A stretch of DNA of 50,024 nt from Vampirovibrio sp. (GTDB lineage: Bacteria; Cyanobacteriota; Vampirovibrionia; Vampirovibrionales; Vampirovibrionaceae): positions 1-50,024 of the forward strand of contig JAHQWC010000055.1 in NCBI GenBank assembly GCA_019634025.1, read 5' to 3'. Shown in pieces: positions 14,070-38,624 of the stretch; position 1 is the first letter of the stretch; every line of letters starts with the position of its first letter. The notes under the pieces are model-generated. The model made no database searches and was not told where the DNA came from. It was given only the letters and a program-made list of their open reading frames with translations. Position numbers and translations under genes: made by a program.

Positions 14070-15047
14070 CTAGTGAATCCGCCTTTGAATAAACCGTGCC
14101 AGATCATTTAAGGCGCTGGTGTCTTCTAAACCAAGTTGATCTAACGTCGCCATAGCTTCCTGCACCAGATCTTCGGCCAGCGTCACTGTTTTAGACACCC
14201 CATAAAAATCGGGATACGTGGCCTTTTTCTGAATCAAATCCTTCCCGGCGGTCTTCCCCAAGGTGTCTGAGGTAGATTGAACATCCAACAGATCATCCAC
14301 AATCTGGAACGCCAGCCCCAAGGTCTTTCCAAAGCGTTGGAACCCCTCCACCACAGCTGCATCCGCCCCGGCCAACCTGACGCCAGCCACGGCAGAAAAA
14401 GTGAAGAGAGCGCCGGTCTTATAGGTGTGAATATATTCCAGCACCGCCTCATCGTACGGCTGGCCTTCATACAAAATATCCACCAACTGCCCGTTCACCA
14501 AACCATGGATTCCAGCCACATCGGAGAGATCGCTCACTAAATCCAACAAGCTCTGGGCGGTCACCTGATCTGACAGCGGCGTGTGTTTGGTCATCAGCCC
14601 AAACGCCATCCCCAACAATGCATCACCTGTCAGCAACGCCGTGGCTTCATCAAACGCTTTATGCAAGGTGGGCTGGCCTCGACGCAAATCATCATTGTCC
14701 ATACAGGGCAAATCATCATGGATCAGGCTAAAAGCATGGATAATCTCTACAGCACAGGCTGTGGGCAAAGCGGTTTCCATGTTTCCCCCACAGGCGCGGC
14801 AGCTTTCCAAAATCAACACCGGCCGCATGCGTTTACCACCCTTCAAGGTGCTATACCGGATGGCTTCCCACAACCGTTCTGTCCCTTTTACAGGGGCTTC
14901 ACCGTGTTTGCGGCTGGATTCTGTTTCCAACAACCGAGCTAAGCCCGCCTGAAAATAAGCCAGGGTTTCAGAGAATCTTGTGTCATAGGGAACAGCCTCT
15001 GCTGTGTGATATCCCTTACTATGTTCTATCATCGGTTGGGCGTTCAT
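14070..15047 (-). CDS. crtE: Geranylgeranyl/farnesyl diphosphate synthase
   Basis: GGKRMRP, SLIHDDLPCMDNDDLRRG, KTGALF, FQIVDDLLD, GKTAGKD; next to DUF212; start uncertain (track gives 15083). Confidence 0.92.
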   Translation of the reverse strand: MNAQPMIEHSKGYHTAEAVPYDTRFSETLAYFQAGLARLLETESSRKHGEAPVKGTERLWEAIRYSTLKGGKRMRPVLILESCRACGGNMETALPTACAVEIIHAFSLIHDDLPCMDNDDLRRGQPTLHKAFDEATALLTGDALLGMAFGLMTKHTPLSDQVTAQSLLDLVSDLSDVAGIHGLVNGQLVDILYEGQPYDEAVLEYIHTYKTGALFTFSAVAGVRLAGADAAVVEGFQRFGKTLGLAFQIVDDLLDVQSTSDTLGKTAGKDLIQKKATYPDFYGVSKTVTLAEDLVQEAMATLDQLGLEDTSALNDLARFIQRRIH

Positions 15048-15054
15048 TGGGGCA

Positions 15055-16185
15055 TTATAGCGAGTCCGGCGGCTCTTCAGCAAGAACCTGGTCCATATCG
15101 GCAGAAACCTGCTGCCTACGGGTACGGCGCGAAGCCTCCCGGTCCTTGCCTTTTAACCGCAAAATCTCTACAGGCGTTTGGCCCCGACGGTGCAGGGTCT
15201 TAGATCCATAATCTTCTTTTTGGCTAGTCTGCTGAACAGTCCGTTTATAACTGCGGGCCTCCTCAATCATCGCCAGGTAGCTTTGGTACCGGCTCTCATC
15301 CAAGGCTTCTATATTTGCCAACACCGCACAACCCGATTCATCGATATGTAAGCAATCTGAAAACTCACAGGCTTCACGGTACGGAGCAAACTCTCGGTAA
15401 GCTGCTTCAATAGCATTAGGCAGAACCGTATCAAACTTTAGCTGGCTAAACCCCGGCGTATCGGCAATCACCGTATCTGTGGCCACTGTTAAAAGCTCTA
15501 CATGACGGGTGGTGTGTTGCCCTCGACCCAGGGCTTCAGACACCGGTTTTATTTTCAGATCTAGCGACGGATTCACGGCATTCAGTAAAGAGGACTTCCC
15601 CGCCCCACTTAACCCAGCCAGCACGGACATTTTGCCCTTAATTTCAGACAGAAGAGGAGCAAAGGATTCCGGTTGGTAAACAGAGGTGTTGAAGACACGG
15701 TAACCTAAATGATCACTGTAGCACTGGTGAATAGGGTTCAATTGCTCAGGAGAAGCCGCCAAGTCAGTTTTGCTAAGGCAAATAACCGGTTCAATTCCGG
15801 CAATGGCAACCTGAGTCAGATACCGGTCCAGCTGCGCACCGTCAAAGTCCGGCTCTTGAAATGGGTGTACAATAACTACCCGGTCTACATTGGCAATTTT
15901 AGGGCGCTCCAGCCGATTTTGCCGGGGCAGTACCGATTGAATCCGGCCGGTGTTGTTTTGCGGATCCAACGCATCCAACGTCACCCGGTCCCCGACCAAT
16001 ACTTCGGTTCGCTCTTTTTTTAAGAGGCCCCGCAAAGAACATTCATAAAGAGGGCACTCATCCAAAACGTCACCCTGTTGATTACCCGCAGCGTCCTTGT
16101 CCAGATCCAGCGCAACGTAGTAAAAATTAGAATGGGATCGCTGAACTCGTCCTTGAGAAGGTGTAGGAATCACGTTCTGATCCAT
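15055..16185 (-). CDS. rsgA: Ribosome small subunit-dependent GTPase A
   Basis: Circularly permuted GTPase: SKTD, GLSGAGKSSLLN, GRGQHTTRH, DTPGF, Zn finger CEFSDCLHIDESGCAV. Confidence 0.95.
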   Translation of the reverse strand: MDQNVIPTPSQGRVQRSHSNFYYVALDLDKDAAGNQQGDVLDECPLYECSLRGLLKKERTEVLVGDRVTLDALDPQNNTGRIQSVLPRQNRLERPKIANVDRVVIVHPFQEPDFDGAQLDRYLTQVAIAGIEPVICLSKTDLAASPEQLNPIHQCYSDHLGYRVFNTSVYQPESFAPLLSEIKGKMSVLAGLSGAGKSSLLNAVNPSLDLKIKPVSEALGRGQHTTRHVELLTVATDTVIADTPGFSQLKFDTVLPNAIEAAYREFAPYREACEFSDCLHIDESGCAVLANIEALDESRYQSYLAMIEEARSYKRTVQQTSQKEDYGSKTLHRRGQTPVEILRLKGKDREASRRTRRQQVSADMDQVLAEEPPDSL

Positions 16186-17005
16186 TAGACAAGGTATCCA
16201 ATTGTTGTATCACTTGAGAAAATAGGGTGAGTGAGCTTTGATGCGCTTGGGTCCAGCCAAAATCCAGAGAGCGCGTGAAATAGCGTCGAAGTGTCGCCGG
16301 TGATATTTTACACCGATCCTCCGCCAGCCGCACCGCTTCTTCTAGGTGAGTACCGTCTGCAAAGAAAGCTTCGCGACTCTCACACAAGCGCTGGGTAACC
16401 TGTTGCAGGGTTTCAGCATTTGTCTGTGCCCAATCTTTTTGAGCCACCCACACCGCAAACACAAAAGGCAAACCGGTTTGCCGGAACCACAGGTCCGCTA
16501 AATCATAACAGTAATACCCTTCCTCCGGCAAAACATCCGCCATCATCAAAGCATGATCCCCAATAATTAAAGCATTTCCGGAAGATTCCAGTGCTGCCGC
16601 ATAATCGCCGGCAACATAGGATTTAAACCAAGGCCGAAAATCCACTTTCACAGACTGCTGTAGAAGGTGGGCCAGCAAAGCAATAGAGGTTTCTGAATCA
16701 TCCGGCACCATAATGGCAGGTAAGTCCAACAGGGTATGATTCATGGGATTTTTAGAGACAAACAACACACTTTCCACCGCCCCAGGAGAACTCACCGACA
16801 ACCCCGGCACCAAGAGGAGTTGGCGTTGGTGCCGCAAATAATGGGCGCTGGAGACGGGCGAGATTTCCAATTTACCCGCCGCCACAAACTGATTCAACGA
16901 TGCCGGAGATGCATACACTAAAGATTCCAGTTCGTTCGGCTGAAACAAATGATAAATGGGCAGGGTATTAATAAAAGAAATGGCGCCAATAGAAACCGGT
17001 CTCAC
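16127..17005 (-). CDS. mqnA: Chorismate dehydratase, futalosine pathway
   Basis: IGAISFINTLP, GAVESVL, SETS..L, LIIGDHAL, DLADLW...TGLPFVFAVW. Confidence 0.9.
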   Translation of the reverse strand: MRPVSIGAISFINTLPIYHLFQPNELESLVYASPASLNQFVAAGKLEISPVSSAHYLRHQRQLLLVPGLSVSSPGAVESVLFVSKNPMNHTLLDLPAIMVPDDSETSIALLAHLLQQSVKVDFRPWFKSYVAGDYAAALESSGNALIIGDHALMMADVLPEEGYYCYDLADLWFRQTGLPFVFAVWVAQKDWAQTNAETLQQVTQRLCESREAFFADGTHLEEAVRLAEDRCKISPATLRRYFTRSLDFGWTQAHQSSLTLFSQVIQQLDTLSNGSERDSYTFSRTSSAIPF

Positions 17006-17044
17006 GTTTTCAGGCTCCTCTCACCTCAGAATGTATAGGACCTG

Positions 17045-17142
17045 CGTCGTCCTGAACGGAGTGAAGGATCCCCTGCGGGACAGAGGTCCAACGTGATCCC
17101 GCAGGGGGTCCTTCGTTTCGCTCCGCTACACTCAGGACGACG
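17045..17142. repeat. REP-like long hairpin element
   Basis: CGTCGTCCTGA..GAAGGATCCCCTGCGGGA pairs with TCCCGCAGGGGGTCCTTC..TCAGGACGACG. Confidence 0.75.
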
Positions 17143-17169
17143 ATGGCTTCAAGCACTCGCGGCATTTCT

Positions 17170-18342
17170 TCAATCAATCTTATCTGGGCGTGGGTATACG
17201 TTTAAAATCTGGTACGTCGTATCCCGTTCTACTGGGGTTTTCCCAGCCTTCCAAATCATGGTCAGCAGATCCTGCTTAGTCATATGCTCGGCGCTTTCGG
17301 TGCCGGCCGCATGGGCAATTTTTTCTTCTACCACCGTTCCGTCCACATCATCCACCCCAAAGTTCAGCCCGACTTGGGACAGTTTCTCACCAATGTGAAT
17401 CCAGAATGCTTTGAGGTGAGGCACGTTATCTAAAATTAATCGGCTCACGGCAAAGTTCTTCAGATTCTCCACACCAGTCTGGGCATGAGCCGGATCAATT
17501 TTATTGCCTTCGTAATAGCAGTTCAGGGGAATAAAGCACATAAACCCACCGGTTAAATCCTGCTGATCCCGAAGGGCCAAGGCATGATCAATCCGCTCCT
17601 GATAAGTTTCTCCCAGGCCAGCAAGTAAGGTGGCATTGCTTTTCAGACCCAATTTGTGGGCTTTTCCGTGGATATCCAGCCACTGTTCTCCGGTAATTTT
17701 GCTGGGGCAAACCTCTTCACGCACTCTTGGCGCAAACACCTCAGCCCCACCACCGGGCAGAGATTGCAGACCGGCATCTTTGAGGGTCAAAATGGTTTCT
17801 TCCACCGTAATGCCCGCCAGTTTTGCAAAATAATCCAGCTCCACTGCCGTCAGCCCTTTAATGTGGACATGGGGAAAGTGCTTTTTCAGGGCTTTAAACA
17901 GATCCACGTAATACTCCAAACCTTGCTCAGGATACAGGCCCGACACAATGTGGAATTCCGACAAGGTGTCCTTGGCAGAATACTGATTCACGTGATCCAC
18001 CACGTCATCCACCGACATGGCATAGGCAAATGGGGATTTCTCTCCTTTTTTGTAGGAGCAAAACTTGCAGTTCAGTTCGCAAATATTGGTGGGGTTAATG
18101 TGGAAGTTATGCACCCAATACACATAATCCCGGTTTTCCACAGGCGTCCTTAAAATTCTGGCGGTATCCGCCAAAATACCCACAGACAATAGATCATCAC
18201 ACTCATACACCTCAATAGCCTCATCCCGGCTAATCCGTTGACCTTCCAACACCTTGGCGTAAATGTGCTTTAACGGGTTTGAGGGGCGCGTAATATACTG
18301 CTCTTTTAACCCATCCAACCGATCTACCACTGTGGCTGCCAT
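17170..18342 (-). CDS. mqnE: Aminofutalosine synthase (CofH/MqnE radical SAM family)
   Basis: CELNCKFC radical SAM motif, SLPGGGAE, HLKAFW..GEKLSQVGLNFGVDDVDGTVVEEKIAHAAG (more MqnE-like than MqnC-like); AGGAGG RBS before ATG 18342. Confidence 0.82.
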   Translation of the reverse strand: MAATVVDRLDGLKEQYITRPSNPLKHIYAKVLEGQRISRDEAIEVYECDDLLSVGILADTARILRTPVENRDYVYWVHNFHINPTNICELNCKFCSYKKGEKSPFAYAMSVDDVVDHVNQYSAKDTLSEFHIVSGLYPEQGLEYYVDLFKALKKHFPHVHIKGLTAVELDYFAKLAGITVEETILTLKDAGLQSLPGGGAEVFAPRVREEVCPSKITGEQWLDIHGKAHKLGLKSNATLLAGLGETYQERIDHALALRDQQDLTGGFMCFIPLNCYYEGNKIDPAHAQTGVENLKNFAVSRLILDNVPHLKAFWIHIGEKLSQVGLNFGVDDVDGTVVEEKIAHAAGTESAEHMTKQDLLTMIWKAGKTPVERDTTYQILNVYPRPDKID

Positions 18343-18471
18343 CGCCGTGCCTCCTACATGTATTATCATTCTCCAGCTATCTGCTTATACTGTCGTACAA
18401 ACAGACCCCGCCAGCAAGAAGGGCCTTTTTATTAGGGGGATATGCACATTTAGATCTCAAAAGTTTTGCCC

Positions 18472-20898: not shown

Positions 20899-20935
20899 GT
20901 CTTAAATATATTATTCCAGTCTGAATATCAAAACC

Positions 20936-20965
20936 TAAAAGACGACGGTTACCCGTCGTCTTTTA
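20936..20965. terminator. Bidirectional intrinsic terminator
   Basis: TAAAAGACGACGG-TTAC-CCGTCGTCTTTTA between convergent genes. Confidence 0.85.
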
Positions 20966-20987
20966 AAAAGATTCATATGAACCTAGC

Positions 20988-21407
20988 CTATTCGGCAGGG
21001 GCTTCCTCAGCTTCAGCAGCAGGGGCTGCTGCTTCTACTGCGGCAGGCTCTTCAGTTTTAGGTTCTTCGGCAGCTGCAGGAGCAGCTTCCTCAGCAGGTT
21101 TATCTTCATCTGCTTTGGCTTTGGCCTTTTTAGACAAACGTTCCTTGCGAACCAGCTCCAGGCGAATCAATTCACCGGATTCTGGGGCTTTATCGATGAG
21201 CCATTTCACTTTATCTGAAGGCTGAGCGCCTTTAGAGACCCAATCCAGGGCCTGAGTCTTGTTCAGTTTCAAATCTTTTGTCAGGGGATTGTAGTACCCC
21301 AGTTCTTCAATAGGCGCACAATCCCGGCGAGCGCGGATATCCGTCACCACAATCCGGTAAAATGGACGCTTTTTCCGTCCCAGGCGCTTCAAGCGAATCT
21401 TAACCAT
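20988..21407 (-). CDS. rpsP: 30S ribosomal protein S16 with acidic Ala/Glu-rich tail
   Basis: [38 protein letters not shown]. Confidence 0.97.
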
Positions 21408-21510
21408 AAAAGACTTTATCTCCACATTGTCAAAGGGTTGGCTATTCTTTGTATCACAAAGCCAACTACCATGACAAGATTGATATTATTAAGAAATGAC
21501 GCAGGTGCGT

Positions 21511-21885
21511 CTATTTATTTTTTTGAACCAAATATATCGTACCCAGCAAGGCGGTTCCCAACAACAGTACCGTCAAAGTGGGACCTACTGATATAGCCGA
21601 AGGATTAGCTATATAGATGAGAGCCACTGCTGCAACAATATAAATACCGATAAATCGAGGCACTAAAAACGTCACGGCCAAAGCACCCAAAAAAGCCAAG
21701 ATAATGGCAAGTCCAAATATAGGTAGCTCTACCACACCGCTTAATACTAACGGCAATGACACCATAACCACAAACAAAGACCCAAAGAGGATAACCCCCC
21801 AAAATTCATGGAAAAACCACTTGGCTGTCGCCTCAGGGTCGCGGACGCCTTCTTCTTCACTTTCGTGGTGGGCCATCATCATCAT
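21511..21885 (-). CDS. Hypothetical membrane protein (about 4 TM)
   Basis: Hydrophobic ORF with AAGGAG RBS upstream. Confidence 0.7.
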   Translation of the reverse strand: MMMMAHHESEEEGVRDPEATAKWFFHEFWGVILFGSLFVVMVSLPLVLSGVVELPIFGLAIILAFLGALAVTFLVPRFIGIYIVAAVALIYIANPSAISVGPTLTVLLLGTALLGTIYLVQKNK

Positions 21886-22064
21886 CAGTCGCTCTGAACT
21901 CCTTAGTTAATAGCTGTTACGCCTCAGCTACCATACCAAACGAGGCAATGGTCAGTAACAGTAAAAAATAAATCAGAAAAAACCACAGGTTTTTAAAAAA
22001 CATCTCAACTTCATATTGCTTCTTAACCGGCTTTTGACGAACCATAATCTATCTCCTTCCGGCC

Positions 22065-22514
22065 TTAGCTAGATGCTTCTACAGCTTGACTTGCGGAACC
22101 AGTGGCGGCATCCGACGAATCAATGGTTTTTAAGTATTCCTGAAAATCGCCCACCATTTCCTGCAGCTTCTCGTATTCCAGCACAGATAGCCAATAGGCT
22201 TGAATACGTCGCTGATCGGTACTGGGTTTTATTTTCGGCATCCGGGTGCCCAGCAGGCGTTCCCGCAAAAACTTGTTGCCTTCCCGGTAATGGCAGTCTC
22301 CAATCCGGCAGCCACAGGCAAAGGTCCCGTCTGCACCATTTTTCAAGGCCGTTTCCAGCATAATGGGCTGAATCATCCCACTACAAGGCACCTTGATAAT
22401 CTGAACATTGGGATCATCTTTCAAGCAACCTTTTTCATCCAACTGATCCTTCAGCTCGACGCTCCGTTCACAGACCAGTCCGATGATTTTCTCTTTGTTT
22501 TCTGTTGAAGTCAT
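22065..22514 (-). CDS. MvhD/FlpD-like hydrogenase iron-sulfur subunit
   Basis: IIGLVC, VPCSG, GADG...GC..GDCHYREGN pattern of the MvhD/FlpD [2Fe-2S] family. Confidence 0.88.
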   Translation of the reverse strand: MTSTENKEKIIGLVCERSVELKDQLDEKGCLKDDPNVQIIKVPCSGMIQPIMLETALKNGADGTFACGCRIGDCHYREGNKFLRERLLGTRMPKIKPSTDQRRIQAYWLSVLEYEKLQEMVGDFQEYLKTIDSSDAATGSASQAVEASS

Positions 22515-22549
22515 ATGCTTGTCTTCCTTAAATGCGTCTTGGCTGAAGT

Positions 22550-23674
22550 TTATGAGGACGTCGTCGCCAGCGCGACTTTAATTTCTTCCAATACATCCGC
22601 TGATTCTCGACGGGGAATTTCAATGGCCTTAAAAGCACAGGCGCCTACACATAAACCGCAGTTAGAACACCGTCCGGCATCCACCACGGCTAAACGTTTA
22701 AAGCGAGTGTCATCATCCCGGTCCACCATCTCAATAGCTTCATAAGGGCAGTCATGGTAGCACAGGGAACATCCGGTACAGTTCTCAAACTTCACATGGG
22801 CAAACTGACCGCGCAAGGTCTTTTTATGCAGATAGGGTAGCCACAGCAGGGCGACAATCACACCCAAGGTCAACGCCCATACCCAACCGGCATCCCATCC
22901 TTTTACCGCTAGCCATTGGGGCCACATATACAACAGATCAAAGGAAATGGATTGAGAGAAAGCAGCCCTGTTCGGATCAGCGCCCAACTCTACCGGGAAG
23001 AACCCGCAAATCATAAATAAACCGCCCAGCAACAGCAGGTATAACGGCGCCGGAGCATCGGTGACCGGGCGGGTAATCCGCAGGTAATGCATCCATAAAA
23101 AGAACATCAACAACCCAGGAATCGCCAAGTGCAAAAACAGCAACCGGGTCAGGGTAAAGTCCACCATCTTGCCGCCGGGCATAAAAAACTCGGCCAATCC
23201 GGCCCCCACTAAGGGCAAGGCTCCCAGCAGGTTCACCGTCATGCTGGTCAGGTTCACCGCTTCCTGGTCCCAAATCAACAGGTAGCCGGTTAAACCCACC
23301 AGAAAGGTGATGGTTAACAAAATCACGCCGGTGAGCCACGGAATAATCCGGTATTCTCGATACCGATCCGTAAACCACACGCGCAACATGTGCAGCAACA
23401 CAAAAATCATCATGCCATCCGCTGCATAACGGTGGATACTACGAAATGCGTTTCCAAACGGAATCTGCTCGGTAATATATTTTACCGACGGATACGCCTT
23501 TGTCATGGTGGGCACGTAGTAGGCAAACAGGAGCAAGCCGGAAATAAACAGCGTCCAGATGAAAAAGTTCGGCAAGGCGCCATGGTAATAGAACGGATTG
23601 TATTTTTGAGAAAAGACCTTGTTCAAGCCTTTCTCAATCCACAGGGTAAAGGTTTGTAGCCGTTCCGTATACAT
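22550..23674 (-). CDS. Cytochrome b fused to a C-terminal 2x[4Fe-4S] ferredoxin domain
   Basis: Four heme His (H81, H95, H182, H196), GLTGYLLIWDQ; CTGCSLCYHDCP and CSNCGLCVGACA. Confidence 0.9.
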   Translation of the reverse strand: MYTERLQTFTLWIEKGLNKVFSQKYNPFYYHGALPNFFIWTLFISGLLLFAYYVPTMTKAYPSVKYITEQIPFGNAFRSIHRYAADGMMIFVLLHMLRVWFTDRYREYRIIPWLTGVILLTITFLVGLTGYLLIWDQEAVNLTSMTVNLLGALPLVGAGLAEFFMPGGKMVDFTLTRLLFLHLAIPGLLMFFLWMHYLRITRPVTDAPAPLYLLLLGGLFMICGFFPVELGADPNRAAFSQSISFDLLYMWPQWLAVKGWDAGWVWALTLGVIVALLWLPYLHKKTLRGQFAHVKFENCTGCSLCYHDCPYEAIEMVDRDDDTRFKRLAVVDAGRCSNCGLCVGACAFKAIEIPRRESADVLEEIKVALATTSS

Positions 23675-23706
23675 ATCTTACCGTTCCTCGTTTATAACTA
23701 TTGGGC

Positions 23707-24321
23707 TTACGATTTTTTCTGCCGGTCTGGCGCACGAGTCGCCAGCTCTTCTTCATGCCCCAGACTGATATAGGCAATGGCTGTCACCACAAAGATCAGA
23801 CCAATTCCCAAAAAGTAAGGCTTCAGCCCGGTAGAGATCATTTGCCGAACCGCTTCGGCATTATTCATCTGCTCAAGGGTCAGGTTAATGTTCCCTTCAC
23901 CACAGATCATCACCAGCATACCAAATAAGCCGGAGGCGAACACCAGGATTAACAGGACAACTTCTTTCATGGCAGATCCTTTTGCGGCAGATTCTAAGCG
24001 GGAAACCTCAACCTTAGTGGTCTTCCCCTCAACATCGCCATTCAGTTTCCGGTAAAGCGCCTCAAAGGGACCAAACTCCCGCTGAATCTTCCCTTTAATC
24101 TTCTCTTTAACATACCCGTCAAACATCAACACCAAAAACGTCACTGCTAAAAAGGCAATGGCACCTAACAAAGCCAACCCGTTCATATCTGTTGGCGTCA
24201 CGGTAAACGTTTTAAACGTCTGAAAGAAAAGCGACAGACCATAGGTAGAGAGTCCAAAGACCACCCACCATAAAAGGCTGTTCATGCCAGAGAAAGATTT
24301 TTTGTCCATCATACTCTTCAT
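23707..24321 (-). CDS. Hypothetical 4-TM protein inside the respiratory operon
   Basis: Two pairs of TM segments; 4-nt overlap with the upstream cytochrome b. Confidence 0.75.
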   Translation of the reverse strand: MKSMMDKKSFSGMNSLLWWVVFGLSTYGLSLFFQTFKTFTVTPTDMNGLALLGAIAFLAVTFLVLMFDGYVKEKIKGKIQREFGPFEALYRKLNGDVEGKTTKVEVSRLESAAKGSAMKEVVLLILVFASGLFGMLVMICGEGNINLTLEQMNNAEAVRQMISTGLKPYFLGIGLIFVVTAIAYISLGHEEELATRAPDRQKKS

Positions 24322-25778
24322 GCGCCAGCCTCCGCCATTTCCTGACGGGTTTTGCGCCGAGAGTCAACCATAATTAAGATTTCAGCAAGCACTACCTGAC
24401 CAATAGAGAAGGCCGCCCACAGCATACTCCAATATAGGTTCGCCGGGTTCCAACCTTCTGGCAGAGCACCACCACTAAAGCTATTAAACCAAACCATAAG
24501 CCAGTCTGCTGCAAAGACATGCCAGAAAAAGAGGTACCAAACCCCAAACAAGGCACAACCATACACCCAGGCACGTAGTGGAAGCTGCTGCTGGTATTGG
24601 CCCCAATGCCAGAACTGACCAATCCCCATAAAGAGGATCATATGGCCAAACCAAAACGGCGGATCTGTCTCAATATTGGATTTATTCATCACAATCATGG
24701 CCGAGAACACCAAAAACTCAACGGCGGCGGCAATCCCCACCATGGTAAAAATAGGCCGTTTCCACATGTTCCGCTCTTCGCCCCAATCCAGAAAAGCCAA
24801 ACCAATGGTAATTACCGGAATCCCTACGGTCCAAATTGTAGCCCAATAGGGATCCATATACCGAAGCATCTGATACAACGCCAGGAAGTACCAATCCGAC
24901 AGAATCGGCAACGGTGTCACCTCAGGGTTTGCCCGAGACCCTGTCTCCGCCGGAATCATAATGGCGGTAATCAATACCATGCCCAACATAATCAAAATGG
25001 CAGGCATCCGCAGGTTCAACCGCTTAAACCGGTTTTTGTAGAAGTACAATTCCGTCACTACCAGCAGGATCAGCGAAATCGTAAAGTGCAACGAATAAAA
25101 CCGGGTCATCGTCGCCTGCCCAATAGAGCTGCCCCCCAGTAAAATCTGAGAGGTGGTCATCCCCTGGTGGGTATAATCGCCAATCATTTTTGTTACCGCG
25201 CCAATGGCGTTGGGTAAAAACCAGGTGTTTTCCACCACAATACCTTCCCACGGCCAGTACCAGTATTTCGGGGTAATATCCAGGTACATCGGGAAGGTGG
25301 CAAAAATCTTGGTGGCCCAAAATGCCCGCTGGTTCCAGATCAACAGATAGCCCGTTAACCCGGAGTACATCGCTGCAAGTAGCAGAATAATAGACAATAC
25401 AAAGGTAAACTCACCTTTGTTCTTGTATTCGGCGTTAAAGTACATCCGATACACCCTTAACGTGGCGGCAATAATCATGCCGTCCCCCGCATATTTATGC
25501 AACCCTCTGAGGATCATTCCCAGTTTGTTTTCTGAAAAGCTGATAATGGAGTCAAAAGCTTGAGAGGTAGTCGGCAAATAAATGGCTACCAGAATCACAC
25601 CGCTGATAATGACCACCATCCAATACAGATAGTAAATACCCCCTAATTGGTACCAGGGAGACTCTTTTTGCAGGTCTGCCTTGGTCTCGTCAAAAAAATC
25701 AATCTTCGCCAACCGGTCCTGGACAAATTTCCAGCCGTCGGCAGGCGCTTGCTTTAATTGAGAAATGACACCTGCCAT
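24318..25778 (-). CDS. Cytochrome b (b6 plus subunit IV-like, unsplit) lacking the bH ligands
   Basis: RGLHKY, GLTGYLLIWNQRAFWA, TRFYSLH, ANPEVTPLPILSDWYF (PEWY equivalent). Confidence 0.9.
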   Translation of the reverse strand: MAGVISQLKQAPADGWKFVQDRLAKIDFFDETKADLQKESPWYQLGGIYYLYWMVVIISGVILVAIYLPTTSQAFDSIISFSENKLGMILRGLHKYAGDGMIIAATLRVYRMYFNAEYKNKGEFTFVLSIILLLAAMYSGLTGYLLIWNQRAFWATKIFATFPMYLDITPKYWYWPWEGIVVENTWFLPNAIGAVTKMIGDYTHQGMTTSQILLGGSSIGQATMTRFYSLHFTISLILLVVTELYFYKNRFKRLNLRMPAILIMLGMVLITAIMIPAETGSRANPEVTPLPILSDWYFLALYQMLRYMDPYWATIWTVGIPVITIGLAFLDWGEERNMWKRPIFTMVGIAAAVEFLVFSAMIVMNKSNIETDPPFWFGHMILFMGIGQFWHWGQYQQQLPLRAWVYGCALFGVWYLFFWHVFAADWLMVWFNSFSGGALPEGWNPANLYWSMLWAAFSIGQVVLAEILIMVDSRRKTRQEMAEAGA

Positions 25779-26444
25779 CTAGGAAATCCCTCCTGCCTCA
25801 ACTTTGGTCACCACCAGCTTATTTGCAGCGGTGTCCACATCCATTTCAAAAATCCGAGGTGGCCGTGGCGCAGGGCCACTAACAACAGCGCCACGAATGT
25901 CACCGAGATCCGTTCCGGTTGCGCCTTCCTGCAGAGGATCAAACACACTGAAGTGGCACGGACATGCAAACAGCGGGTTTTTGGCTAACGGATAGTTATA
26001 ATCCACCGCTTTCGCCGGATCCGTTAAAAAGTTGAACACACAGCCCATGTGTGGACAAATGCGACTCACAGCATGAAAGACTTTTTCGCCACCCTCATCT
26101 GGCAGCCGAACCACGAACCCTGGAATATTAATAGCTTGGAAGCCTTTAAACGTATACTCTCTGCTTTTCTGGCCAAAGGTAAACGTTTGGTAAGACCACG
26201 GTGTCGGAAAATCATCCAGCGAGAACACAATGTCCCGTTCCCGAACCGGTAAATCCGGATTACTAAAGAGGCCACCGCCCCCTTTCCATTCTAAAGGACT
26301 GCCTTTAAAGCTAAATTTGGTCAACGTCTCGCCAATAGGCCCGGCACTGGGCCGCAGATAGCGTACCAGCGGAGAGATAAACAGGCCAATGGCGCCCAAC
26401 AACGGCAGGCCAAACAATATTTTCAAAAACGCTCGGCGATCCAT
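25779..26444 (-). CDS. Rieske [2Fe-2S] subunit of a cytochrome bc-type complex
   Basis: Tat-like RRAFLK anchor; CPHMGC and CPCHFS boxes; GPAPRP. Confidence 0.93.
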   Translation of the reverse strand: MDRRAFLKILFGLPLLGAIGLFISPLVRYLRPSAGPIGETLTKFSFKGSPLEWKGGGGLFSNPDLPVRERDIVFSLDDFPTPWSYQTFTFGQKSREYTFKGFQAINIPGFVVRLPDEGGEKVFHAVSRICPHMGCVFNFLTDPAKAVDYNYPLAKNPLFACPCHFSVFDPLQEGATGTDLGDIRGAVVSGPAPRPPRIFEMDVDTAANKLVVTKVEAGGIS

Positions 26445-26447
26445 GGC

Positions 26448-27551
26448 TTAGTGTCCTCCCTCGCTGACTTCTTCAGAAGGTGCAGCTGGTTTTGGAGCCG
26501 CACCAGCGTTCCGAGGTGTTACCGGCGGAATCAAAGGATGTACGCCTTCAGGCCTGGGCAATGCCACTCCGGCAGGGATTTCATCATCCGGCGACAAGTC
26601 GTTGTTGTAGGATAACGACCGTACATGCCGAATCAACATCCAGATCATTTTATCGTCATATTTAAAGTTTTTCTGCTTATCTTCATTTCCCAGCCATGCC
26701 GGCATGCCAGAAGGGTAAATCCCTTCACTCACATATTTGAATAACTGGGCATCCGTCCGGTTATACATCCGGGCATAATGATCCTTCAGGTTCGCTGGCG
26801 GCGGCTTAAAGATACCTCCGTGAACTTTAATAGACTCTGCGCCTTCATGTTTAGGCATACCCGTATGCAACGGGCCATCCGCAAAACCACGTTTTCCATG
26901 GCACACGGCACAGTTCTGACCAAACACTGCCGCCACATCTACAGGTTCACCAGCCAAATTGTCATACTTCATATCCCCGTTACCGGCTAAGTGACGTGCA
27001 TAAAAAGCTGCTTCCCACCGCTGGTCTCGGGTCAATTTATCCCGTAAAGGACCAGCAGGGTGAACCTGCGCCAACAGATCCAAACGGCCATTCTTTTCAG
27101 AAACAACCATCTCTTCCGGTTTTTTACCCGTGGTCAAAAACAGATACACATCAATCGGCGTGGTATAGGCCAATACTTTTTGCTTATCTTGCTGCTGCCA
27201 GTAGCCAGCAGCGTGACAGGAAAGACAGTTATTCTCATAGACACTCTTCCCATTCGTCAAAGACGGTGGGGCAGACGGAAAGGCAAAATCTTCTTCAGAA
27301 ATCCGCTCATCAAACACCGGCTCGGACAGAAGACTCGTATTGTCTTTAATTTCTTCTTTAGCACAACCCGTCACTGTTAGTGCAACAGCAGCAGATAACA
27401 ACCCTAATGAAAAAACGCGTCTGGCCGACTTCAAAACAGACAAAACGCCGGAAAAACGAGAGAATCCCTTTTCCTCAATATTTGCGTTTGTTTTGTTGTT
27501 GGCGTCCATATCCATAGAAATCATTGTCCCTGTTGAATCATTAGTAACCAT
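26448..27551 (-). CDS. Diheme cytochrome c, probable lipoprotein
   Basis: CLSCH and CAVCH heme motifs, GMPAW distal Met, lipobox-like VTGC; start uncertain. Confidence 0.88.
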   Translation of the reverse strand: MVTNDSTGTMISMDMDANNKTNANIEEKGFSRFSGVLSVLKSARRVFSLGLLSAAVALTVTGCAKEEIKDNTSLLSEPVFDERISEEDFAFPSAPPSLTNGKSVYENNCLSCHAAGYWQQQDKQKVLAYTTPIDVYLFLTTGKKPEEMVVSEKNGRLDLLAQVHPAGPLRDKLTRDQRWEAAFYARHLAGNGDMKYDNLAGEPVDVAAVFGQNCAVCHGKRGFADGPLHTGMPKHEGAESIKVHGGIFKPPPANLKDHYARMYNRTDAQLFKYVSEGIYPSGMPAWLGNEDKQKNFKYDDKMIWMLIRHVRSLSYNNDLSPDDEIPAGVALPRPEGVHPLIPPVTPRNAGAAPKPAAPSEEVSEGGH

Positions 27552-27753
27552 AAAACTTAATCCAAGACACCGAGGCCCACAGAATAATCAGGGTAAAGAA
27601 CAACCACAAGAACCAAGGTACCTGGTGCTCTCCGACTTCAAATTCGGCATATTCGTCTCCATCAGGTCGATCAGTCGCCGAACTTTCTGAAGCAGCATTT
27701 TCCGAAGTTACAGACTCCGACTGAGGCGTTGTGGTTTCTTCAGCGTCTACCAT
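27541..27753 (-). CDS. Small single-TM protein resembling the CcoP/FixP N-terminal membrane segment
   Basis: EVGEHQVPWFLWLFFTLIILWASVSW; position within the cco operon. Confidence 0.6.
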   Translation of the reverse strand: MVDAEETTTPQSESVTSENAASESSATDRPDGDEYAEFEVGEHQVPWFLWLFFTLIILWASVSWIKFYGY

Positions 27754-27756
27754 AAT

Positions 27757-27927
27757 CTAGTCTTCATCCTTTAGCATTGCATACTTTGCCTGTTCCAAGT
27801 TCTCCAACCGGCCCGTGCCGGACGCCCAAAACAGAGCGATTACCGCCATCAGAAAAAACAATCCGCAGATAAAGAAGGCGGCAATGTAGCCGGGACCAAT
27901 TCCACCAGAAAGACAACTCGGGCACAT
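27757..27927 (-). CDS. ccoS: cbb3-type oxidase assembly protein CcoS/FixS (not in ORF track)
   Basis: Manual translation MCPSCLSGGIGPGYIAAFFICGLFFLMAVIALFWASGTGRLENLEQAKYAMLKDED*; ATG overlaps the ccoO stop (TAATG). Confidence 0.78.
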   Translation of the reverse strand: MCPSCLSGGIGPGYIAAFFICGLFFLMAVIALFWASGTGRLENLEQAKYAMLKDED

Positions 27928-28895
27928 TAGTGAGGTCGTCCTCCGCCGTATTGATACGCGCCATGATCGGCGCCCAGGTTTTCAATATATTTGTAGTTAT
28001 CATCCAGCTTATTGGGATCATCCAATTGGCTAAATTCCGTCACCTCTACCTCACCGGCAGCAGCGCTACCGTCGTTTGGCAAGGTTTTCAAGAAAGCGAC
28101 CAGATACAACATATCTTCATCGCTCAACGATTTTTTCCACCGGGGCATGCGAGTCCCAGCCACACCTTCAGCAACCCGCCAATACCACATATCGTTGGAA
28201 TAGGCGGCATAGTAAGGCCGGGTAAAATTGGCCGGTTTTTTCGCCATGGTAGCGCTTACAGGACCATTACCTTTGCCCTGCACCCCGTGGCACACAGCAC
28301 AATTTTGCATATAGATCCCGCGACCCGCATTGGCGGCGGCAGAAGAATCCACATCCACCAATTCACTAATCACGTGATATTTATCGCGATATTCTTGCGG
28401 CCCGTTAATCCAGTGCGGTTGTTTCCGTTTTGCACCCAGAGTTTGCAGATAGGCAATCAAGTCACTCATATCATCATGACTCAGATAACTAAAGGAGGGC
28501 ATAATGGATCCCGGCTTCACGGCGCGAGGGTTCACATGGTGCGCCCAATGCCAAGAATCGGGGTACTTACCACCGATGTTAGACAAATCCGGACCCGTCC
28601 GCTCCGTGCCTAAAACGTGAGGCGTTTCATGTACATAATCCCCAGCAGCCACCATCTCGCCGGTTTCACGATCTTGATACCGGACAAACTGGGTGTGGCA
28701 GTAAAAGCAACCTTCCCGCCGATAAACATTCCGCCCCCGCAACACGGCAGGATCTTCCTGCTCGTAGTTGGTAGCCACCTCACTGGCTTCGGGCTGAAAC
28801 TTCAGGTAGGGCAAGTACACCGTCACCACAATAATGGTTACAAATACCAGGGCGATATAGGCGCCGGCCACTAAATAATTAAGTCGTTTTTCCAT
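27927..28895 (-). CDS. ccoO: cbb3-type cytochrome c oxidase subunit II with an extra heme c domain
   Basis: GRNVYRREGCFYCHTQFVR, GTERTGPDL, PGSIMP; second CAVCH domain. Confidence 0.92.
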   Translation of the reverse strand: MEKRLNYLVAGAYIALVFVTIIVVTVYLPYLKFQPEASEVATNYEQEDPAVLRGRNVYRREGCFYCHTQFVRYQDRETGEMVAAGDYVHETPHVLGTERTGPDLSNIGGKYPDSWHWAHHVNPRAVKPGSIMPSFSYLSHDDMSDLIAYLQTLGAKRKQPHWINGPQEYRDKYHVISELVDVDSSAAANAGRGIYMQNCAVCHGVQGKGNGPVSATMAKKPANFTRPYYAAYSNDMWYWRVAEGVAGTRMPRWKKSLSDEDMLYLVAFLKTLPNDGSAAAGEVEVTEFSQLDDPNKLDDNYKYIENLGADHGAYQYGGGRPH

Positions 28896-28927
28896 AAGCC
28901 GCTAACTCAGAGGTGCTCCCTACTCTT

Positions 28928-30325
28928 CTATACGTAAGCCATCCCGGTGGGGGAAGCTGGGATCGGTTCATAATTTTTGGAGAATACCGTTTTGTAGATG
29001 TTGAACATAAACAAGATTTGACCCAGGACAATCATCACACCGGATAAAAACCGAACAAACATGTAAGGCTCTAATTCCATGCCCCACTGATCCACCGGCA
29101 AGGCAAAGTGCCATCCGGCAGCCTGTACCAGCCCGGCAATGGTCAAGGCCAGCATCATGATGATCCATCCCAAGAAACTCAGCCAGAAGTGCCACACCGC
29201 CAGCTGCTTACTAAAGACCTTGCGTCCGGTGACCTTGGGAATAATGTAGTAAACCGCCGCAAAAACAATAAAGGAGAACGTCGCCAACAACGCCATGTGC
29301 GCGTGCCCCACCACCCAGTTACTGAAGTGAATATACCAGTTGATTCCCCGCGTTGCCTGAAACGGACCCTGAATACAGGTGAGCAAATACCCCAGCCCTG
29401 AGGCCATGACAAAGCGAAGCGGCACATGATCGGCCGCCAAAGACCATTTACCCTTCATGGTCATAAAAAAGTTGGTCAATACGGTAAACACCGGCACCAA
29501 CAAAAACACACTAGAAATAACCGCGATGGCTTTCAACCATTCCGGCACGGGTGATTGCAAAATATGGTGCGTTCCGGTCGGCGCATAAAACATTCCAATG
29601 GTCCAAAATCCAATCATAGACAAGGTATGACTGTACAACGGATTTCCAGTAAATCGAGGGATCAGGTAGTACAGAATCCCAACGCCACCCACGGTAAACC
29701 ACATACCCAAAATATTGTGACCATAAAACCAACCGGCAATGGCATCATTCAACCCGTCAAACTGCACAAACGCCCGGTTCCCAACCACATACACAATAGG
29801 AAACCAAAATAACGCGCCCAAAATGTACCACAGGGTCACGTACCATTTTTTCTCAGGGCCGGACAACACGGTTTTATAAACGTTAATCCCAGTCAAAATT
29901 AACCCGGCTAACACCATCCAGTCAAAAATGCCTTGTAGCTCTGCGTACTCTCTGGCTTCGGTGTAACCATTCATAATAGAGAGCGCGCCCAGACCCACCA
30001 GCAGGTTCCACACCACCATGGTCACATTGCCTAAGCGTTCAGACCAAAGCCGCTTACTACCGGACAGCACTGTTCCCAAAAAGAACATACAGCCCACATA
30101 ACCCATGGACAGCCAACCAATAAGAACCCCATGAGTATGGACCGGCCGTAACCGGCCAAAGGATAACTGCGGCACTTCATGGATCAAATCCGGCCAGGTC
30201 ATTAACGCGCCGGCGGTTAGACCAATCGTGGTTCCAAACACCAACCAGAAAATCGCAGAAATTAAAAAGTTCCGACTCGCACTAAATGGCTCGTCACTAA
30301 AAACAGCGTTCAAAAATCTATTCAT
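28928..30325 (-). CDS. ccoN: cbb3-type (C-family) heme-copper oxidase subunit I
   Basis: SFGRLRPVHT, REYAE, WFYGHN, GTHH, WVVGHAH. Confidence 0.93.
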   Translation of the reverse strand: MNRFLNAVFSDEPFSASRNFLISAIFWLVFGTTIGLTAGALMTWPDLIHEVPQLSFGRLRPVHTHGVLIGWLSMGYVGCMFFLGTVLSGSKRLWSERLGNVTMVVWNLLVGLGALSIMNGYTEAREYAELQGIFDWMVLAGLILTGINVYKTVLSGPEKKWYVTLWYILGALFWFPIVYVVGNRAFVQFDGLNDAIAGWFYGHNILGMWFTVGGVGILYYLIPRFTGNPLYSHTLSMIGFWTIGMFYAPTGTHHILQSPVPEWLKAIAVISSVFLLVPVFTVLTNFFMTMKGKWSLAADHVPLRFVMASGLGYLLTCIQGPFQATRGINWYIHFSNWVVGHAHMALLATFSFIVFAAVYYIIPKVTGRKVFSKQLAVWHFWLSFLGWIIMMLALTIAGLVQAAGWHFALPVDQWGMELEPYMFVRFLSGVMIVLGQILFMFNIYKTVFSKNYEPIPASPTGMAYV

Positions 30326-37553: not shown

Positions 37554-38624
37554 TTACGGAATATAAGATTCCAACTCATCCCGAACGAACTTCGGCAAAT
37601 TTTCAAGCTTTAACAAATCCCGGATGGCCTCTTCACCGCCCAACCGAAACACAGCATCCACCGCCGCCAAAGCAACATCATCCGCCGTATCAAAAACGGA
37701 TTCCCGCACATAGGGCAAGCACTCTTCTTCACCAGATTGTGCCAACGCATGCACTGCCGTTAATCGAATAGACGGCGCTTCATCCGAAAGTGCAGCAATT
37801 AAACTATCCGTAGCCTTGCGGCTCCCGGCACTGCCAATGCGGCCAATGGCTTCAATAATGTATTCCTTAAACACGTTAAATTTATCCCGAATCCCCCGCT
37901 TAGATTCCAAGGCGTCAATCAACGGCTCCAACGCTCGAATATCCCCTAACATGCCCAGAGCTTTGGCAGCAGATTCTTTTATATAAAGTGATTTTTCCCA
38001 CTCATCGTTTAACAGATTCACCAGCGGCGCTACAGCATGGTCGTCTCCCAGTTGGCCCAAACTTTCCGTGGCGGCCAGGCGCAGCCGGTAATTTTCAGAT
38101 TTGTCATTCAACAACGTCATCAAGGGCTCCATCGCCCGGTTATCTCCAATGCGGCCCAAGGAACGAACCGCTGATATTCGAAGCCTTAACACCTCATCAG
38201 AACTCGGAGGCTCAATATTAGAAGCATCAGAACCAGAAGAATCTACACCCTCAAAAAATCGAACCTCGTTGGTCTTCCCTTTTGAAGGGATGGCAATGTC
38301 CAAAATCTGAGGAACAGCTCCGTACGCCCGAATTCGTCCCAATACCCCCACACAGTGGCCCAACACTTTAGGGTGAGTCTCATTCTTCAAGCATTCACTT
38401 AAACAGTGTATCCAACGTAAGTTCATTTCACCGTCAGACGCCTCTTGAATAAAATCACCCAGCCGACTAATGGCATGAATTTTGGCATCCACCACTTCCT
38501 GCGTGTCAGTCGTCAACGCAATACACGCCATTAATTCTTCAGGGCTATGAGACTGTTCAACCATATGAAGTGGGGTTGAGAGAGTGTCTGACTTTTGAAG
38601 TGACATGCTCGTCGTACCTCTCAC
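37554..38624 (-). CDS. HEAT-repeat (PBS lyase-like) protein
   Basis: Repeated R..A..ALG.IGD.RA..PL units. Confidence 0.88.
   Translation of the reverse strand: MRGTTSMSLQKSDTLSTPLHMVEQSHSPEELMACIALTTDTQEVVDAKIHAISRLGDFIQEASDGEMNLRWIHCLSECLKNETHPKVLGHCVGVLGRIRAYGAVPQILDIAIPSKGKTNEVRFFEGVDSSGSDASNIEPPSSDEVLRLRISAVRSLGRIGDNRAMEPLMTLLNDKSENYRLRLAATESLGQLGDDHAVAPLVNLLNDEWEKSLYIKESAAKALGMLGDIRALEPLIDALESKRGIRDKFNVFKEYIIEAIGRIGSAGSRKATDSLIAALSDEAPSIRLTAVHALAQSGEEECLPYVRESVFDTADDVALAAVDAVFRLGGEEAIRDLLKLENLPKFVRDELESYIP

Follow-up and report, generated by a model that had tools for sequence, protein, structure and literature searches.

A ten-gene operon that joins a cbb3-type oxidase to a Rieske protein, two cytochromes b and an iron-sulfur module is carried by a 50,024-nucleotide stretch of DNA from Vampirovibrio sp. 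(contig JAHQWC010000055.1 of GenBank assembly GCA_019634025.1; the whole stretch is referred to here as the window). The two cytochromes b were found to differ in their haem sites: both ligands of the inner haem bH are missing from the first (b-1), the chain with the quinol-oxidation (Qo) motif, and are kept in the second (b-2), which is fused to a ferredoxin domain and followed by the gene of an MvhD-like protein. Judged from their sequences, the two chains would not be redundant, b-1 being without bH and b-2 having the only bH together with the iron-sulfur module. On a narrow balance, the gene products are considered to form a single menaquinol:O2 machine in which the cytochrome b core is split and an iron-sulfur port opens to the cytoplasm. 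Aerobic Vampirovibrionia (Melainabacteria) share this 'complex III-IV' operon across the class; its layout is known, and its internal wiring appears to be an uncharacterised variant of the Rieske/cytochrome b complex.

Two unlike cytochromes b and their iron-sulfur module

The source assembly belongs to Vampirovibrionales (Melainabacteria), measures 2.48 Mb and is 79% complete; the window is its contig 44. An earlier interpretation made from the nucleotides without database searches (the sequence-only reading) had described ten tightly packed co-oriented genes, and all ten open reading frames (ORFs) were confirmed on the minus strand, neighbours being separated by -11 to +35 bases. They run from 30325 to 22065, ccoN first and the MvhD-like gene last, and the inter-gene distances in that order are 32, -1, 3, -11, 3, 0, -4, 32 and 35 bases. 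Pfam and NCBIfam profile searches assigned the proteins to families as follows (aa, amino acids; TM, transmembrane).

28928..30325, minus strand: ccoN, catalytic subunit of a C-family (cbb3-type) haem-copper oxidase, 465 aa (Pfam COX1, 265.6 bits)
27927..28895, minus strand: ccoO with a second, CcoP-like cytochrome c domain, 322 aa (FixO and Cytochrome_CBB3)
27757..27927, minus strand: FixS/CcoS-like protein, 56 aa, single TM helix, marginal (Pfam FixS, 23.5 bits)
27541..27753, minus strand: 70-aa protein with one C-terminal TM helix, no family (from its sequence)
26448..27551, minus strand: dihaem cytochrome c, signal of the lipoprotein type, position of the start codon uncertain (Cytochrome_CBB3 and Cytochrom_C domains)
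25779..26444, minus strand: Rieske [2Fe-2S] protein with a twin-arginine signal (Pfam Rieske, 25.2 bits)
24318..25778, minus strand: cytochrome b-1, full-length, 486 aa (Pfam Cytochrome_B and Cytochrom_B_C)
23707..24321, minus strand: 204-aa protein with about four TM helices, no family (from its sequence)
22550..23674, minus strand: cytochrome b-2 with a 2x[4Fe-4S] ferredoxin domain, 374 aa (Cytochrome_B and Fer4_7)
22065..22514, minus strand: MvhD/FlpD-like protein, putatively [2Fe-2S], 149 aa (FlpD, 87.2 bits)

Alignment of b-1 to cytochrome b6 chains (HMMER) showed that the ligands of haem bL, H94 in helix B and H231 in helix D, are kept, and that R108 (helix B) and Y245/F246 (helix D) stand where the second histidine of each helix is expected. 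This second histidine of helices B and D is taken here, following the standard assignment, to be the ligand of the inner, high-potential haem bH. The substitution is general among orthologues: the helix-B position holds Arg or Lys in 31/31 and His in 0/31 sequences, and the helix-D position Tyr in 32/32 and His in 0/32. The Qo motif is an invariant SDWY within PLPILSDWYFL, a variant of PEWY with Ser first, and the bL ligands are likewise invariant. Thus b-1 is not a normal cytochrome b, its ligands for the outer haem bL being retained and those for the inner bH lost. The four histidines (bL plus bH) that characterise Rieske/cytochrome b complexes are incomplete in b-1, the chain with the Qo motif, and complete in b-2. 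Where the sequence-only reading had listed two cytochromes b, both genes were recovered, but b-1 lacks both bH ligands and the pair is not equivalent. Haem ci was also considered, and rejected, for b-1, b-2 and the cytochrome b of a second locus described below (contig 88), the Cys to which it is bound in b6 having been replaced in all three.

In b-2, Pfam Cytochrome_B covers residues 20-200 (106.3 bits), Fer4_7 covers 298-350, and the match to b6 in the Protein Data Bank (PDB) reached E 5e-31. All four histidines (H81, H95, H182 and H196) are kept in 29/29 aligned sequences, as are the eight Cys of the ferredoxin domain, arranged in two CxxCxxCxxxC(P) boxes (29/29). Hydropathy gave six TM helices, helices G-H being absent; since the domain follows helix F, the known topology of cytochrome b places the iron-sulfur domain in the cytoplasm. 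Where the Qo motif would be expected, b-2 reads DLLY within the order of the window and xDWF in other families of the class and in fused relatives.

The MvhD-like protein, the only FlpD match in the genome, has MvhD (PDB 5odc_D, E 6.1e-19) as its best solved match, and its C15, C44, C69 and C74 are conserved in every aligned row; from the family, its cluster would be of the [2Fe-2S] type. On the HdrA2 model, the ferredoxin domain of b-2 aligns to positions 571-642 and the MvhD-like protein to the stretch that follows, 645-774.

The pairing of the two chains was addressed by folding b-1 with b-2(1-290), each supplied as an alignment, in three runs and beside three controls. The model scored 0.68 versus 0.00 for the best of the 3 controls, the runs agreed in 100% of contacts, and partner pLDDT was at least 81. 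In calibration the mark was reached by 116/157 solved complexes and by 2/215 mismatched pairs, counts that apply only roughly here because our own alignments were used. The modelled interface consists of residues 61-73 and 221-247 of b-1 and residues 43-63 and 172-197 of b-2, so that each chain contributes its helix D and the end of its helix A, in a pseudo-symmetric arrangement.

Partner subunits, distribution and relatives of b-2

CcoN aligns with PDB 3mk7_A over residues 13-449 (E 5.9e-60), and the ligand histidines and the helix-VII Tyr of the haem/CuB site are aligned to identical residues. Its score against TIGR00780 (254 bits) is below the equivalog cut-off of 583, which marks it as a divergent member of the cbb3 family; ccoN is the only COX1 match in the genome. 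CcoO combines FixO (114.7 bits, residues 6-142) with Cytochrome_CBB3 (60.3 bits, 186-269), scores 138 bits against NF011054 'subunit II/cytochrome c', and carries CxxCH at residues 63 and 199, two such motifs being present in 30/30 complete orthologues. The monohaem subunit of the cbb3 family (FixO with CxxCH at 63) is present, fused to a second cytochrome c domain.

No ccoP was found in the assembly (79% complete), as the sequence-only reading had also noted: TIGR00782 gave a single match genome-wide, which scores 27.9 bits (cut-off 179.95) and falls on the C-terminal domain of the CcoO fusion. The ccoS proposed in that reading corresponds to a real small ORF with a single TM helix, which is conserved in relatives; its identity is marginal, with FixS at 23.5 bits against a cut-off of 23.1 and FixQ at 15 bits, below cut-off. 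The 70-aa protein matches no Pfam or NCBIfam family, and its C-terminal stretch VPWFLW...SWI.FFGY is kept in 20 relatives.

The dihaem cytochrome c carries CxxCH at residues 109 and 214 (two motifs in 31/31 orthologues), and a Cys that closes the hydrophobic signal segment, in the manner of a lipoprotein, was seen in about 29/31 orthologues when the sequences were judged by eye; its match to NCBIfam bc1_QcrC_actin is weak, at 24.3 bits against a cut-off of 200. The Rieske protein begins with MDRRAFLK (RR signal) and has the CPHMGC and CPCHFS boxes, so that the CxH...CxxH boxes and the disulfide cysteines are present. Its signature residues after CxCH are S-F; among relatives S-Y occurs in 23/31 and S-F in 8/31. 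A physical III-IV supercomplex is plausible on these sequence features, because the operon is conserved, the dihaem cytochrome c is of lipoprotein type, CcoO is fused to a cytochrome c domain, and neither a soluble carrier nor CcoP is encoded. The tethered dihaem cytochrome c is the best argument at this level for direct wiring from III to IV.

The term 'obligate', which the sequence-only reading attached to such a respiratory supercomplex, could not be upheld, since a further Rieske/cytochrome b locus of canonical type is present in the same genome, next to a gene for a bd-like/cytochrome c fusion (contig 88, locus L045, 1841-6025). The Rieske protein encoded there contains CTHLGC...CACHGGQY, with the signature G-Y, and its cytochrome b is a canonical 362-aa chain with a PEWY motif and four His. 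Two more proteins are encoded at this locus: one of 372 aa that belongs to no family, and one of 480 aa whose N-terminal half resembles cytochrome bd subunit I and is joined to a cytochrome c domain.

The synteny survey that the sequence-only reading had proposed was carried out by blastp of the window's proteins on 22 loci of the order and on loci from other families of the class, and it agreed with a conserved layout. The full order from ccoN to the MvhD-like gene was found in 18/22 order-level loci, 2 more being collinear and cut by a contig end, and the same order was found in 10/10 loci from other families. Close relatives of b-2 were seen in Vampirovibrionales, Vampirovibrio chlorellavorus and Candidatus Melainabacteria. 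When 301 genomes of the class were sampled, with b-2 called at E <= 1e-40 and b-1 at E <= 1e-60, b-2 was present in 158/301 and b-1 in 150/301, and a comparison of the tables by hand gave 146 genomes with both. By family, the counts for b-2 and b-1, respectively, were as follows.

f1: 22/24 and 23/24
f2: 4/5 and 4/5
f3: 3/19 and 3/19
f5: 85/96 and 77/96
f6: 28/30 and 28/30
f9: 11/12 and 10/12
f10: 3/3 and 3/3
f11: 1/1 and 1/1
f7, f8 and f4: negative for both (0/99, 0/9 and 0/2)

In a wider search, b-2 was compared with 1.84 billion representatives, and 295 clusters were obtained at E <= 1e-30, most of them spanning b-2 residues ~10 to 370. The lengths in this family cluster near 375, near 500-550 and near 650-790 aa. 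Among 16 longer relatives that were scanned, 15 combine cytochrome b, Fer4 and FlpD on one chain and 1 combines SCO1, cytochrome b and Fer4; P0187 has a SCO1/SenC domain at its N-terminus. In the long forms (650-790 aa, P0133-P0193) FlpD is followed by a TM helix and another 130-200 residues in 9/9 examined, with a CxxCH end in 2/9, and by topology this post-MvhD domain (~150 aa) should be periplasmic. In one Nitrospinaceae assembly (L036, 2920-8244) and one Rhodospirillales assembly (L037, 10-7368) a fused cytochrome b-ferredoxin-MvhD gene follows COX2-like, COX1 and SCO1 genes, and no Rieske gene is present. A 175-188-aa gene of no family lies directly after the fusion gene in both loci, and the Rhodospirillales locus also has CtaA upstream and two Crp-type regulators downstream. 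A PDWF-FeS clade of cytochrome b with 4Fe-4S and MvhD domains, whose clusters contain no Rieske protein, has been described (Kao and Hunte, 2014, PMC4122944).

Proposed electron path and its alternatives

In the proposed mechanism b-1 and the Rieske protein would together form the Qo site at which quinol is oxidised, as the roles of these families suggest. The first electron would pass from the Rieske protein to the tethered dihaem cytochrome c, then to the extra cytochrome c domain of CcoO and on to CcoN, where O2 would be reduced. The core would be a b-1/b-2 heterodimer, to which b-1 would give the only Qo site and one bL, and b-2 the second bL and the only bH. With Qo confined to b-1 and bH to b-2, the second electron would have to move from bL of b-1 to bL of b-2 and then to bH. 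From there it could enter the port, consisting of the two [4Fe-4S] clusters fused to b-2 and the one [2Fe-2S] cluster of the MvhD-like protein in the cytoplasm; a quinone-reducing site at bH would be an alternative outlet. One complex with a split core and a port is suggested by the loss of bH from the only Qo chain, its retention in the partner, the strict linkage of the genes and the model taken together. That b-1 and b-2 work in one complex is held to be slightly more probable than not.

Flow in the port would run from outside to inside: bifurcation at Qo, pulled by a mid- to high-potential Rieske protein and O2, would push the second electron to a cytoplasmic acceptor. Exit to the cytoplasm is the direction favoured here, tentatively and at a little less than an even chance. 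The preference draws on the precedent of dihaem-b anchors, through which electrons from quinol are delivered to iron-sulfur subunits in the cytoplasm, and on the fact that every form of the b-2 family adjoins a high-potential sink. Entry from the cytoplasm is held to be less likely than exit, and the likelihood that then remains falls to a plain Q cycle with an auxiliary iron-sulfur module, or to something else. Rieske proteins with the signature S-F are reported to have potentials of ~260 mV and those with S-Y of >260 mV (Mid+ to high potential), and menaquinol is at about -80 mV (PMC4122944). By this rule the Rieske centre of the window would be of Mid+ to high potential, and genes of futalosine-type menaquinone synthesis, described below, lie in the window. 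With menaquinol at -80 mV and the Rieske centre at ~ +260 mV, a potential of ~ -400 mV could in principle be attained by the second electron on the outer side, and it would still be markedly negative after crossing the membrane field, which makes the reduction of moderate-potential cytoplasmic clusters conceivable, though not thereby shown. The fullest version of the proposal, an obligately heterodimeric core in which quinol-based bifurcation replaces or supplements the Q cycle, sending one electron to O2 via cbb3 and the other via three b haems and three iron-sulfur clusters to the formation of an intracellular reductant, is considered improbable.

Several observations weigh against a heterodimer with an outlet to the cytoplasm. 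Energetically, moving an electron inward costs membrane potential, so exit would be feasible only with a strong pull from the Rieske branch, and typical ferredoxin-type clusters are more negative than b haems. No partner of the MvhD-like protein was found: in a search that did not extend to hydrogenase genes, HdrA was absent from all five genomes examined, including one assembled as a single contig, the matches of NF040770 being limited to the ferredoxin and MvhD parts and to generic dinucleotide-binding motifs. The genes are also not inseparable, since b-2 and the MvhD-like gene stand apart from the rest of the operon in two relatives (loci L017 and L018 among the 22 order-level loci, the former also with small genes). 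The former belongs to a genome (G040) that is split exactly before b-2: one contig (L057) carries ccoN to the first half of the four-TM gene, and the other (L017) carries b-2, the MvhD-like gene and two small genes, downstream of rpoC. In the class survey, at the thresholds used, b-2 was detected alone in 12 genomes and b-1 alone in 4, most of the discordant assemblies being fragmented. The occurrence of the b-2 module beside other haem-copper enzymes in Rieske-less loci of other phyla indicates that it can work without b-1. Finally, cytochrome b homodimers have been solved many times, so the pass of the model may reflect nothing but this likeness; a b-1/b-2 heterodimer and two homodimers would look the same to the model, with which the heterodimer is compatible without its formation being established thereby.

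One alternative treats the port as an entry, by which a reduced cytoplasmic carrier (a ferredoxin-like protein or a dehydrogenase) would feed the MvhD-like protein, the two [4Fe-4S] clusters and bH, and from there quinone or the oxidase. It would resemble the ferredoxin input to b6f proposed for cyclic electron flow. Transfer from low-potential iron-sulfur clusters to b haems is downhill in the established redox ranges and needs no coupling, and the long relatives, with a TM helix and a periplasmic domain after MvhD and a CxxCH cytochrome c end in 2/9, would suit a wire from cytoplasm to periplasm feeding a haem-copper enzyme. Entry nevertheless leaves the loss of bH in b-1 unexplained, the operon contains no conserved gene for a donor, membrane potential would be dissipated by electrons flowing outward, and the known dihaem-b/iron-sulfur anchors mostly work from quinol to a cytoplasmic acceptor. 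We regard it as fairly unlikely, though a serious rival.

A low probability is also given to the other serious rival, two machines that share one operon. A Rieske/b-1 homodimer would send both quinol electrons sequentially to the Rieske protein, with no Q cycle and with bL idle or protective, and b-2-ferredoxin with the MvhD-like protein would be a separate quinol:X or X:quinone oxidoreductase (like NarI-NarH, HdrE-HdrD or QmoC) sharing regulation with the oxidase. The module that stands alone in L017 and L018, the single-chain fusions beside haem-copper enzymes in the Nitrospinaceae and Rhodospirillales assemblies, the size of the family (295 representative clusters) and the Rieske-less clusters of the PDWF-FeS clade, as reported in PMC4122944, all speak for such a division. 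It is opposed by the loss of bH from every b-1 orthologue seen together with its retention in b-2 and the co-occurrence of both in the same families, and by the pseudo-symmetric dimer of the model, subject to the likeness noted above. The decay of the Qo-motif position of b-2 to DLLY in the order of the window further argues against b-2 alone oxidising quinol there.

An ordinary III-IV supercomplex, to which the sequence-only reading amounts if taken at its word, with both cytochromes b as normal complex III subunits and the iron-sulfur proteins accessory or regulatory, would accord with the published annotation as petB, petB and petC beside ccoNO and with bc1-cbb3 supercomplexes of other bacteria, but it is very unlikely, given that b-1 could not bind bH in the usual way, that b-2 is without helices G-H and, in the order of the window, without a Qo motif, and that the eight ferredoxin Cys and four MvhD Cys invariant across the class argue for working clusters.

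The split core with an iron-sulfur port is the reading retained. To our knowledge, every known bc1/b6f structure is a homodimer of two-haem cytochromes b, and electron crossing between cytochrome b monomers has been argued over for years. Here evolution appears to have settled on a design that works only with inter-monomer transfer, with Qo on one chain, the only bH on the other and an iron-sulfur wire in addition. If the proposed assembly is true, it would offer a natural test case for inter-monomer electron transfer, for quinol-based bifurcation to cytoplasmic acceptors and for the ancestry of b6f in the cyanobacterial lineage, and a heterodimer with an iron-sulfur port would surprise bioenergeticists. 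If the bifurcation reading holds as well, the Rieske-less fusions would extend it to a widespread and uncharacterised class of bifurcating membrane modules dependent on a high-potential sink, and it would bear on the origins of bc/b6f complexes and of ferredoxin-linked cyclic flow, the lineage being the sister of photosynthetic cyanobacteria. The design is common (158/301 sampled class genomes), and Vampirovibrio chlorellavorus, a member of the group, has a culture-collection isolate (NCIMB 11383) that provides a starting point for biochemistry.

Flanking genes and comparison with known systems

Downstream of the MvhD-like gene the following features were located.

21917..22045, minus strand: 42-aa single-TM protein, conserved after the MvhD-like gene (from its sequence and blastp)
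21511..21885, minus strand: 124-aa membrane protein with a WFFxEFW motif, no family (from its sequence and blastp)
20988..21425, minus strand: rpsP (ribosomal protein S16), downstream of the 124-aa gene
20934..20967, minus strand: strongest terminator-like hairpin of the region, 3' of rpsP, a 15-pair stem followed by a T run

The 42-aa gene has blastp matches at the same position in 17 order-level loci and in 9/10 loci of other families; the 124-aa protein is conserved only within the order. The latter was considered as a PetD-like piece and rejected, its match to Pfam Cytochrom_B_C being only E 0.12 and the hhalign probability against the b-1 family 0.1. The transcription unit probably extends past the ten genes through the 42-aa and 124-aa genes. 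A weaker 5-pair hairpin (21511-21498) lies directly 3' of the 124-aa gene, and the sole strong terminator-like hairpin of the region (20967-20934) lies beyond rpsP. Predictions of promoters and terminators did not help in defining transcripts, because promoter-like sites are not enriched in the region (11 versus a mean of 11.7 in shuffles) and because the terminator-like sites within the operon are short and inside coding sequence, although such sites are enriched overall (28 versus a mean of 13.2 in shuffles).

The 204-aa protein with four TM helices (23707-24321) had no Pfam match even at E 5; its Atlas feature hits were all <0.9 and its structural TM-scores all <0.5. Many relatives encode the two halves as distinct neighbouring ORFs of ~90-125 aa (e.g. 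L015, L019, L020, L023 and L058). At five loci of the large-genome family f5 (L048, L049, L051, L053 and L054) the b-1 ORF has 596-673 aa, against 486 here, and blastp found no separate four-TM gene; the extra length may represent a fusion with the four-TM protein.

Three further features of the window were recorded. The S16 protein (rpsP, 20988-21425) ends in a ~60-residue tail in which Ala, Glu, Pro and Lys are abundant; its ORF as listed has a GTG start, and the true start may be further downstream. A menaquinone-related cluster on the minus strand (14070-18369) includes a polyprenyl synthetase, an RsgA GTPase, a VitK2_biosynth (futalosine pathway) protein and a radical-SAM protein with a CofH/MqnC C-terminal region. 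At 37554-38624 a 356-aa protein of PBS-lyase-type HEAT repeats is encoded (HEAT_PBS, 87 bits), in a lineage that is reported to be without photosynthetic machinery.

The layout of the operon, which the sequence-only reading took to be already on record for Melainabacteria, has been published as a 'complex III-IV' operon or fusion with two petB genes (Soo et al., 2017, as cited in bioRxiv 10.1101/531145). Supplementary Note 6 of Matheus Carnevali et al. (2019, PMC6349859) places type C oxygen reductase genes beside petB, petB and petC, and cydA beside a second cytochrome b6 set. The lineage and the layout are the same as here, and the reported cydA-like/second b6 set matches the contig 88 locus; unlike the present account, the available portions of these sources treat the genes as b6f/complex III subunits and contain no mention of absent bH ligands, of a fusion to ferredoxin or of an MvhD-like protein. 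Complexes I-IV, a cbb3 oxidase and a bd oxidase have been reported in V. chlorellavorus (PMC4451040). Among the papers searched, none joined Melainabacteria or Vampirovibrio with MvhD, with cbb3 and cytochrome b, or with Rieske and cbb3. Accounts joining Melainabacteria, Rieske and cytochrome b did not note the loss of bH ligands, within a coverage of only 12/29 supplementary files of PMC6349859, the rest of which (including Supplementary Data 22) may list genes in more detail.

Among other supercomplexes, the actinobacterial bcc-aa3 (PDB 6adq, 7rh5) likewise has a membrane-bound dihaem protein, QcrC, in place of cytochrome c1 and a soluble carrier; unlike the operon described here, it has an A-type oxidase, a homodimer of normal two-haem QcrB and no iron-sulfur module. 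The bc1-cbb3 assemblies of Rhodobacter capsulatus and Pseudomonas aeruginosa (PMC7876108, PMC10556555; PDB 6xkw, 8smr) also couple a Rieske/cytochrome b complex to cbb3, and CcoN of the window matches the CcoN chains of the two PDB entries with E 3e-50 and 1.2e-55; they differ in having separate operons, a canonical cytochrome b homodimer and CcoP.

For the iron-sulfur side, the nearest functional parallels are NarI-NarH, HdrE-HdrD, DsrM-DsrK and QmoC with the MvhD-like domain of QmoB, in which two b haems carry electrons across the membrane to cytoplasmic iron-sulfur clusters. The port would work alike, but these anchors belong to a different cytochrome b family (the NarI type) and none is known to have a Rieske protein or a second, haem-deficient cytochrome b as its partner. 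In the Mvh-Hdr complex, MvhD (5odc_D) shares the four aligned Cys, and the order of ferredoxin then MvhD is that of the HdrA2 C-terminus; here, unlike in that complex, HdrA was found in none of the five genomes and the domain is attached to a respiratory cytochrome b. The PDWF-FeS clade (PMC4122944) is similar in architecture: cytochrome b including the ef-loop region is joined to 4Fe-4S and MvhD domains, and b-2 is 30-38% identical to such fusions over its whole length. It differs in that the MvhD-like protein is here the product of the next gene instead of a fused domain, that a Rieske gene lies three genes upstream in the cluster, and that the PDWF motif is replaced by DLLY (order of the window) or xDWF (other families of the class). 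Together b-2 and the MvhD-like protein represent a split form of this published but uncharacterised clade.

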